Source: a virus. From it: a DNA stretch of 12,802 bases. The notes under the pieces are model-generated. The model saw only the letters and a program-made list of their open reading frames with translations. It did not search any database and was not told where the DNA came from. Where the stretch lies: the IMG/VR virus record IMGVR_UViG_3300045970_001057. One strand, written 5' to 3'. The position numbers and the translations under genes were made by a program. Below, piece by piece: positions 6,575 through 6,754 of the stretch. Each line of letters begins with the position of its first letter. Position 1 is the stretch's first letter.

Positions 6575-6754
6575 TTATCTATTTGTGAAAATCATATCGG
6601 ATATTAGTTTTGATGTTACTTCGCCTATTATCACTTTTTCATAAATAATTTTTTTATCTTTATAAATTCGTAATAAATTTCCATCTTTATCATTTTTTAT
6701 TATCCAACCATATTTTTGACCATCTATATCTATTTCTTTGAATTTCTTTTTCAT
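6575..6754 (-). CDS. Unannotated 59-aa ORF (MKKKFKEIDIDGQKYGWIIKNDKDGNLLRIYKDKKIIYEKVIIGEVTSKLISDMIFTNR), translationally coupled to the vault-like gene
   Basis: Its ATG at 6752-6754 overlaps the TGA of the 802-aa gene at 6751-6753 (ATGA). It has a TAA stop at 6575-6577. The terminator hairpin follows directly. Confidence 0.45.
   Translation of the reverse strand: MKKKFKEIDIDGQKYGWIIKNDKDGNLLRIYKDKKIIYEKVIIGEVTSKLISDMIFTNR

Follow-up and report, generated by a model that had tools for sequence, protein, structure and literature searches.

The described systems closest to the present locus in gene arrangement are the cargo genes of encapsulins and the vault cargo that carries an MVP-interaction (INT) domain; as in those systems, the small gene follows immediately on a shell-like gene within what appears to be one transcription unit, with the difference that here the adjacency is not conserved among the homologues of either gene. 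Bacterial and Borg homologues of MVP are documented in the literature (bioRxiv 10.1101/872010; bioRxiv 10.1101/2024.11.05.622173), and our full-text literature search returned no paper on phage MVP homologues and nothing on the small protein studied here or on a small MVP partner. The other arrangement that bears comparison is that of the small non-essential early genes of T4-like and jumbo phages. Relatives of the small gene at other loci likewise lie in packed, overlapping small ORFs near rIIA/rIIB-like genes, and presence/absence polymorphism and fast evolution are common to these clusters and to the family. The likeness ends in two respects: a tblastn search of 50,697 deposited phage records with the window protein and with a consensus-like family member found no homologue, and the gene of the present locus stands behind a large structural-type gene.

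The locus lies in a stretch of 12,802 nt of viral DNA (IMG/VR record IMGVR_UViG_3300045970_001057), here called the window. The reading that we prefer, and that we regard as probable, is that the small gene is a real gene of an undescribed huge-phage family, that it is an accessory subject to gain and loss rather than a dedicated partner of the vault-like gene, and that it encodes a small binding protein.

The small gene and its transcription unit

The features that define the locus are given below.

6575..6754, minus strand: small gene, 59 codons plus TAA; product of 7.0 kDa with a pI of 9.6
6751..6754, minus strand: ATGA overlap, the ATG of the small gene (6754-6752) lying over the TGA (6753-6751) of the MVP-like ORF
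6751..9159, minus strand: MVP-like gene, the upstream cistron, 802 aa, with Pfam matches
6519..6556, minus strand: intrinsic terminator with a 14-bp stem, a 4-nt loop and a U run; hairpin at 6556-6525
9160..9272, minus strand: upstream boundary of the transcription unit, made up of the terminator-like hairpin that closes the preceding gene (9254-9272) and an intergenic leader of ~95 nt that runs up to the MVP-like gene

The ORF at 6575..6754 translates as MKKKFKEIDIDGQKYGWIIKNDKDGNLLRIYKDKKIIYEKVIIGEVTSKLISDMIFTNR. Both the 59-codon frame and the overlap of its ATG with the TGA of the 802-aa gene, as given in the preliminary description of this DNA, are borne out by the sequence and its translation. 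The 802-aa ORF matched the Pfam families MVP_shoulder (1.3e-26), Vault_3 (3.1e-9) and Band_7 (1.2e-5); this MVP-like gene is treated here as the genomic setting of the small gene rather than as its established functional partner. MVP-like genes of this kind are widespread in large and huge uncultivated phages, as a profile scan of IMG/VR recovered 105 stretches carrying one, down to ~36% identity, and genes 49-52% identical are present in two uncultured phage records of 462 kb and 735 kb (LR756500 and LR756501; L037 and L038).

The hairpin at 6556-6525 has a folding energy of -19.2 kcal/mol (z = -5.0; none of 200 shuffled sequences was as stable), and a consensus terminator scan recovered it too, on the opposite strand. 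The stop codon of the small gene (TAA, 6577-6575) is separated from it by 18-19 nt, in agreement with the 19 nt reported earlier, and the terminator is kept 3' of the small gene in two related contigs, L019 and L020. Since the MVP-like gene and the small gene lie together between the terminator at 9254-9272 and that at 6556-6525, we infer from the sequence that the two probably form a single two-gene transcription unit. The ATGA junction with the MVP-like gene is also found in L019 and L036 (88-89% nucleotide identity), and the corresponding junction in L020 is GTGA. A 4-nt overlap of this type would allow termination-reinitiation. Rfam and tRNA scans of the window returned nothing, so no vault-RNA-like element was detected in it. 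Its genes appear to have no Shine-Dalgarno sequences in front of them, which may point to a host among the Bacteroidota.

The window is AT-rich (~27% GC) and contains antisense ORFs of 55-78 aa; for this reason ORF length alone is not evidence for a gene, and the presence of such chance ORFs is what would favour the explanation that the small frame is itself an untranslated chance ORF in AT-rich spacer DNA. Its conservation tells otherwise. Homologues with an intact frame are present in L017/L018 (62 aa; the same contigs as L001/L009), L019 (56 aa), L020 (57 aa, with a GTG start), L036 (57 aa; the one close relative added by a metagenome scan) and P0004 (57 aa). The indels among the close variants are all of 3, 6 or 9 nt, and so stay in frame, and fall mostly in the loop between strand 2 and strand 3 of the predicted fold; the pairwise dN/dS of the small gene among these variants is 0.22-0.39, indicating purifying selection. 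In addition, hundreds of homologues, down to ~31% identity, share a conserved signature and a consistent predicted fold. On this evidence the chance-ORF explanation appears effectively refuted by conservation, leaving it next to no weight, and the frame at 6575-6754 is almost certainly a real gene. Interruption of the frame in close relatives, which the preliminary description had named as a sign against its proposal, was not seen, the five close variants being intact. The same description had called the gene hidden; the identical protein had already been called by JGI as 'hypothetical protein', so that the gene is not hidden, and what it lacks is a functional annotation.

Several other genes of the window were assigned in the course of the analysis. 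A stand-alone 119-aa protein is encoded at 6115-6474 (minus strand) and matches Pfam cREC_REC, the cyclic-phosphate processing receiver domain (1.6e-23), and phrog_1479 (9.5e-27). An SIS-domain protein is encoded at 3730-4314 (minus strand; SIS_2, 6.7e-24), and a glucosaminidase-type endolysin at 5294-5827 (plus strand; PF01832, 3.1e-26; phrog_3513, 1.7e-38), the latter being the only sizeable plus-strand gene inside a long minus-strand block (128-9911).

Association with the MVP-like gene

The preliminary description had proposed the small protein as a possible partner or cargo of a vault-like shell. Stated in full, the small protein would be a partner, adaptor or cargo of the shell that is made together with it by translational coupling. 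This is what one would read from the terminator-bounded transcription unit that the two genes share and from the ATGA overlap kept in the window, L019 and L036, and the basic N-terminus of the family could in principle dock to a shell. The distribution of the two genes argues against it. We took 79 of the 105 MVP-like loci, together with the 6 kb that flank each of them to either side (1.03 Mb in all), and scanned them with the family HMM, which matched only L039 and L047, both of the window's own lineage (95% MVP identity). The gene is thus found downstream of MVP-like genes, where the preliminary description had advised looking for it, in the window's lineage alone (2 of 79), and 77 of the 79 loci are without it. 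In L039 and L047 the MVP-like gene ends in TAA and a 77-aa ORF separates it from the small gene, as it does in L001/L009. The gene is also missing from L002, whose MVP is 92% identical and where the MVP stop (TAA) is followed by a terminator and then by the cREC gene, and no family member was found within 10 kb of the MVP-like genes of LR756500 and LR756501.

The reciprocal comparison gave the same picture. None of 13 independent family loci (L021-L035) has an MVP-like ORF within 10 kb of the family gene, an absence of co-occurrence that the preliminary description had itself named as evidence against its proposal. Co-occurrence was judged in both directions from the 6-10 kb around each gene, and some of the contigs bearing the family and some of those bearing MVP derive from the same metagenomes. 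An all-against-all BLAST of the ORFs within 4 kb of the family gene at the 13 loci revealed no common neighbour family. In the same search around the MVP-like gene no neighbour was conserved across lineages, and only antisense shadow ORFs inside the MVP-like gene clustered. In 8 of the 79 loci an ORF of 40 aa or more begins no further than 5 nt from the MVP stop, several of these needing a TTG start; apart from two near-identical contigs, the eight appear unrelated to one another, and the largest cluster among 77 ORFs downstream of MVP has 6 members. These observations refute the partner reading as a general rule at the level of genome association.

The rates at which the genes diverge point the same way. 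When the window is compared with L017, identity is 64% for the small protein (dN 0.179), as against 95% for MVP (dN 0.027) and 93% for cREC (dN 0.038); such divergence of the small protein would be unlike that of a tightly co-adapted structural partner. PDB-sequence and Foldseek searches gave no match to a known shell partner or cargo and no pointer to a shell-cargo or MVP-interaction domain. Together with the retention of the small gene in L020, where MVP is deleted, and with start overlaps that are generic in the family (both described below), this leaves a slim chance for a shell partner co-made by coupling; the small gene is very probably not a dedicated partner of MVP. A narrower version, in which this lineage alone has recently recruited the gene to serve its vault-like shell in an accessory, docking or cargo role, with the ATGA junction setting the protein ratio, is in our view hardly probable. 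If it were true, such lineage-specific recruitment would give the first case in which a vault-like particle of a phage has a small partner protein dedicated to it.

The variants of the locus show that the small gene lies in a hotspot of gain and loss, which has the MVP-like gene on one side and the gene for the cREC receiver-domain protein on the other, with the following gene orders.

L002: MVP, cREC
Window, L019 and L036: MVP, small gene; cREC follows in the window and L019, and L036 ends at the small gene
L017: MVP, 77-aa ORF, small gene, GIY-YIG endonuclease, cREC
L020: (MVP deleted), small gene, GIY-YIG endonuclease

By parsimony, the small gene would have been gained after the split from L002. 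In L020 (ENA ERZ27271835, k141_66911), nucleotides 1-120 match window positions 9250-9131, that is, the MVP leader and first 9 codons, and nucleotides 120-422 match window positions 6799-6491, so that 2.3 kb of MVP are missing. The first 9 MVP codons are thereby joined out of frame to the last ~16, and the small gene (with a GTG start), the terminator and the GIY-YIG gene are kept. L019 retains just the last ~35-38 MVP codons, preceded by unrelated sequence; its first 93 nt had no match among the sequences compared. Because both are short metagenome contigs (L019, 1363 nt; L020, 682 nt) that may be chimeric or come from defective genomes, the evidence for deletion is suggestive only. If they represent real genomes, the vault-like gene would be dispensable, or lost in part of the population.

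Other elements were observed around this site. The cREC gene lies beside the hotspot in all close relatives. The ORF between MVP and the small gene in L017 (4764-4997) encodes an acidic protein of 77 aa (MESRSELMTVSQLYEVL...), occurs in the L001/L009 lineage only and has no Pfam match. A gene resembling those of GIY-YIG homing endonucleases (MEKRQKICGVYKITN...KYYIGS...) is located between the terminator and cREC at L017 5324-6094 and at L020 ~470-682; it is absent between window positions 6474 and 6526, a presence/absence pattern typical of a homing element.

The position of this endonuclease gene directly downstream of the small gene and terminator in both L017 and L020 would suit an explanation in which the small gene is a passenger, carried along with the homing endonuclease in a mobile cassette. 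Against this, no endonuclease adjoins the small gene in the window, in L019 or at the family loci elsewhere, and no neighbour family is common to the family loci. A passenger of this kind is very improbable, and we retain the reading of the small gene as an accessory that is gained and lost.

The overlap with the upstream gene is itself a property of the family. Of 12 other family loci, eight have a family gene whose start overlaps an unrelated upstream ORF by 4, 17 or 20 nt, and in three further loci the gap to the upstream ORF is 1-15 nt. The window also has other overlapping or abutting same-strand junctions, including, by coordinates, a second 4-nt overlap at 2789-2792. Since such overlaps are found throughout the family, with upstream genes that are unrelated, and since overlapping junctions are common in the window, the coupling is not specific to MVP. 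Of the coupling and co-expression with the MVP-like gene proposed in the preliminary description, the common transcription unit and the ATGA junction kept in L019 and L036 therefore stand, and the implied specificity does not.

The recurrence of particular overlaps may be explained by the 5' end of the family gene. The conserved A-rich sequence ATG-AAA-AAR-AAA-xxT-AGA would supply a TGA at nucleotides 2-4 and a TAG at nucleotides 15-17, and these could act as stops for whatever gene lies upstream; the overlaps of 4 and 17 nt would recur because the 5' end contains stops in two reading frames. The codons of the [FHY]-R pair appear, from the positions of the overlaps, to read xxT-AGA. On this model the small gene of the window would ride on the MVP transcript and be translated by reinitiation at the ATGA, and the family tends to be the downstream reinitiating cistron behind any gene. 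The 5' end of the family would then be a neat small example of an accessory gene that plugs into any operon.

The protein family and its predicted fold

With a profile built from the three closest sequences, a search of 1.84 billion proteins yielded 94 representatives at 50% identity (E<=1e-3), and a 44-sequence profile extended this to at least 225 clusters at 90% identity. The family HMM matched the window ORF with E ~2e-24 (83.9 bits), the window sequence being itself in the seed; independent support for its membership is given by the three-sequence profile, because that profile retrieved the 94 representatives. Members are mostly ~56-75 aa long and basic (median net charge +4), and the contigs of the 13 independent loci reach 676 kb, further family-bearing contigs being of 339, 259 and 240 kb. 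They share the signature MKKK[FHY]R[DE]ItVdG.kY[GA]W, followed by a variable loop (often DGDGGN), L.IWKDKK.I, about 8 residues and ITPK..(I/V)...I. Fifteen positions are nearly invariant (M1, K2, K3, K4, R6, I8, V10, Y15, W17, I30, K34, K35, T47, P48 and I55); the window protein keeps 12 of these, with K6, I10 and S48 in place of R, V and P, and the L017 homologue retains R6 and P48.

The window protein had no Pfam match at E<=0.1, and 44 family members had none at E<=0.01. Scans of PHROGs and NCBIfam with the window protein and 44 relatives returned nothing that describes the family, and the family profile matched no PDB sequence. The family is thus undescribed in Pfam, PHROGs, NCBIfam and PDB, and has so far been found only in metagenomic large and huge phages.

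Structure prediction with AlphaFold2 gave a pLDDT of 82.9 from an alignment of 3 sequences and of 86.1 from one of 96 (five models, 85.4-86.1), with the same fold in both cases. The fold is predicted to be a four-stranded beta meander with a C-terminal helix (in the window protein, strands at 6-10, 13-22, 25-32 and 35-42 and a helix at 48-58). The preliminary description had seen a WG-type repeat in the peptide; the empty Pfam search is at odds with that assignment, and the model consists of one four-strand-plus-helix unit, with no repeats. A beta sheet with a helix also makes up small inhibitor modules, phage-encoded ones among them, such as phiKZ gp37 Dip, the N-terminal domain of AcrIF24, MmoD and the TriX immunity protein; identity to these is 6-13% and the scores are as expected for a simple fold.

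Two further arrangements within the family were observed. On the 5.2-kb viral contig L025 there are either tandem family members (4507-4746 and 4767-5204) or a member followed by a more divergent longer copy (E 9e-6). C-terminal extensions other than the Lar-like one described below include a lysine-rich tail in P0017 and a domain common to P0012 and P0067.

Possible functions of the family

In other phages, family members lie within long runs of small same-strand ORFs near genes for rIIA/rIIB-like proteins, RNase H and T4-type RNA ligase. We tentatively read the protein as a stand-alone binding module because of these early-type ORF runs, the presence/absence polymorphism, the fast evolution, the positive charge of the family and its fusions to a Lar-like ribbon. 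The function may accordingly be that of a counter-defence or host-takeover factor that binds a host protein or nucleic acid, an assignment that we hold with somewhat less than even confidence.

The fusions account for about one in eight of the clusters listed: 15 of 120 are 116-124 aa long and combine the window-type domain, at the N-terminus, with the motif CPFCG..C.H.(E/D)CW..WN(K/T)R, a ribbon like that of Lar (PF14354). When 10 fused members were scanned against Pfam Lar_restr_allev, 7 matched over nearly the whole model, all of them below threshold (18-25 bits against a gathering score of 28.6). Two-domain members (~116-128 aa) include P0105, P0116, P0138, P0147, P0156, P0161, P0164, P0172 and P0174-P0176, and further examples are P0183, P0185, P0187, P0191, P0022 and P0052. 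The likeness to Lar concerns the partner domain only, as the window protein has no zinc ribbon and no Pfam match, and, having no cysteine, it is not a Lar protein. Judged by the motif and the Pfam matches, the fusion would place the family domain in one polypeptide with a module annotated as anti-restriction. To our knowledge, the mechanism of Lar itself has not been established. In Iyer et al. (2017; PMC5512222, on polyvalent proteins), the only passage found to bear on Lar as a domain concerns lambda Ral.

A different function is suggested by the PUR repeat (Pur-alpha, PC4/Whirly-like), which has the same order of four strands followed by a helix in ~60 residues and is likewise basic. PUR repeats pair to bind single-stranded nucleic acid, and two units of the small protein could by analogy pair into a PUR/Whirly-like domain that binds single-stranded nucleic acid in phage DNA or RNA metabolism or regulation, and not in counter-defence. 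Chains of PUR repeat III do recur among the weak Foldseek matches, the topology equals that of the repeat, and the basic character of the family, its nearly invariant K3, K4, R6, Y15 and W17, the lysine-rich tail of P0017 and the nearby RNase H and RNA ligase genes in other phages would all fit such a binder. The difference lies in the scores: the Foldseek matches have E>=0.47 and TM 0.34-0.45, and there is no sequence similarity, so that binding as a PUR/Whirly-like dimer, proposed by analogy, is not statistically supported. We consider this function unlikely.

Returning to counter-defence and host takeover, the family may represent a new, widespread class of such modules in huge phages, linked to Lar-like ribbons. 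This wider proposal is tentative and on balance doubtful; it is more probable, and less striking, than a lineage-specific recruitment to the shell. For the phage vault-like gene, the present analysis removes a tempting false lead. The search for its partner or cargo must look elsewhere, because the vault-like gene behaves as a unit of its own, none of its neighbours being conserved. For the small gene, the clear signature, the confident predicted fold and the fusion to a Lar-like ribbon make the family a candidate for counter-defence and host-takeover screens.
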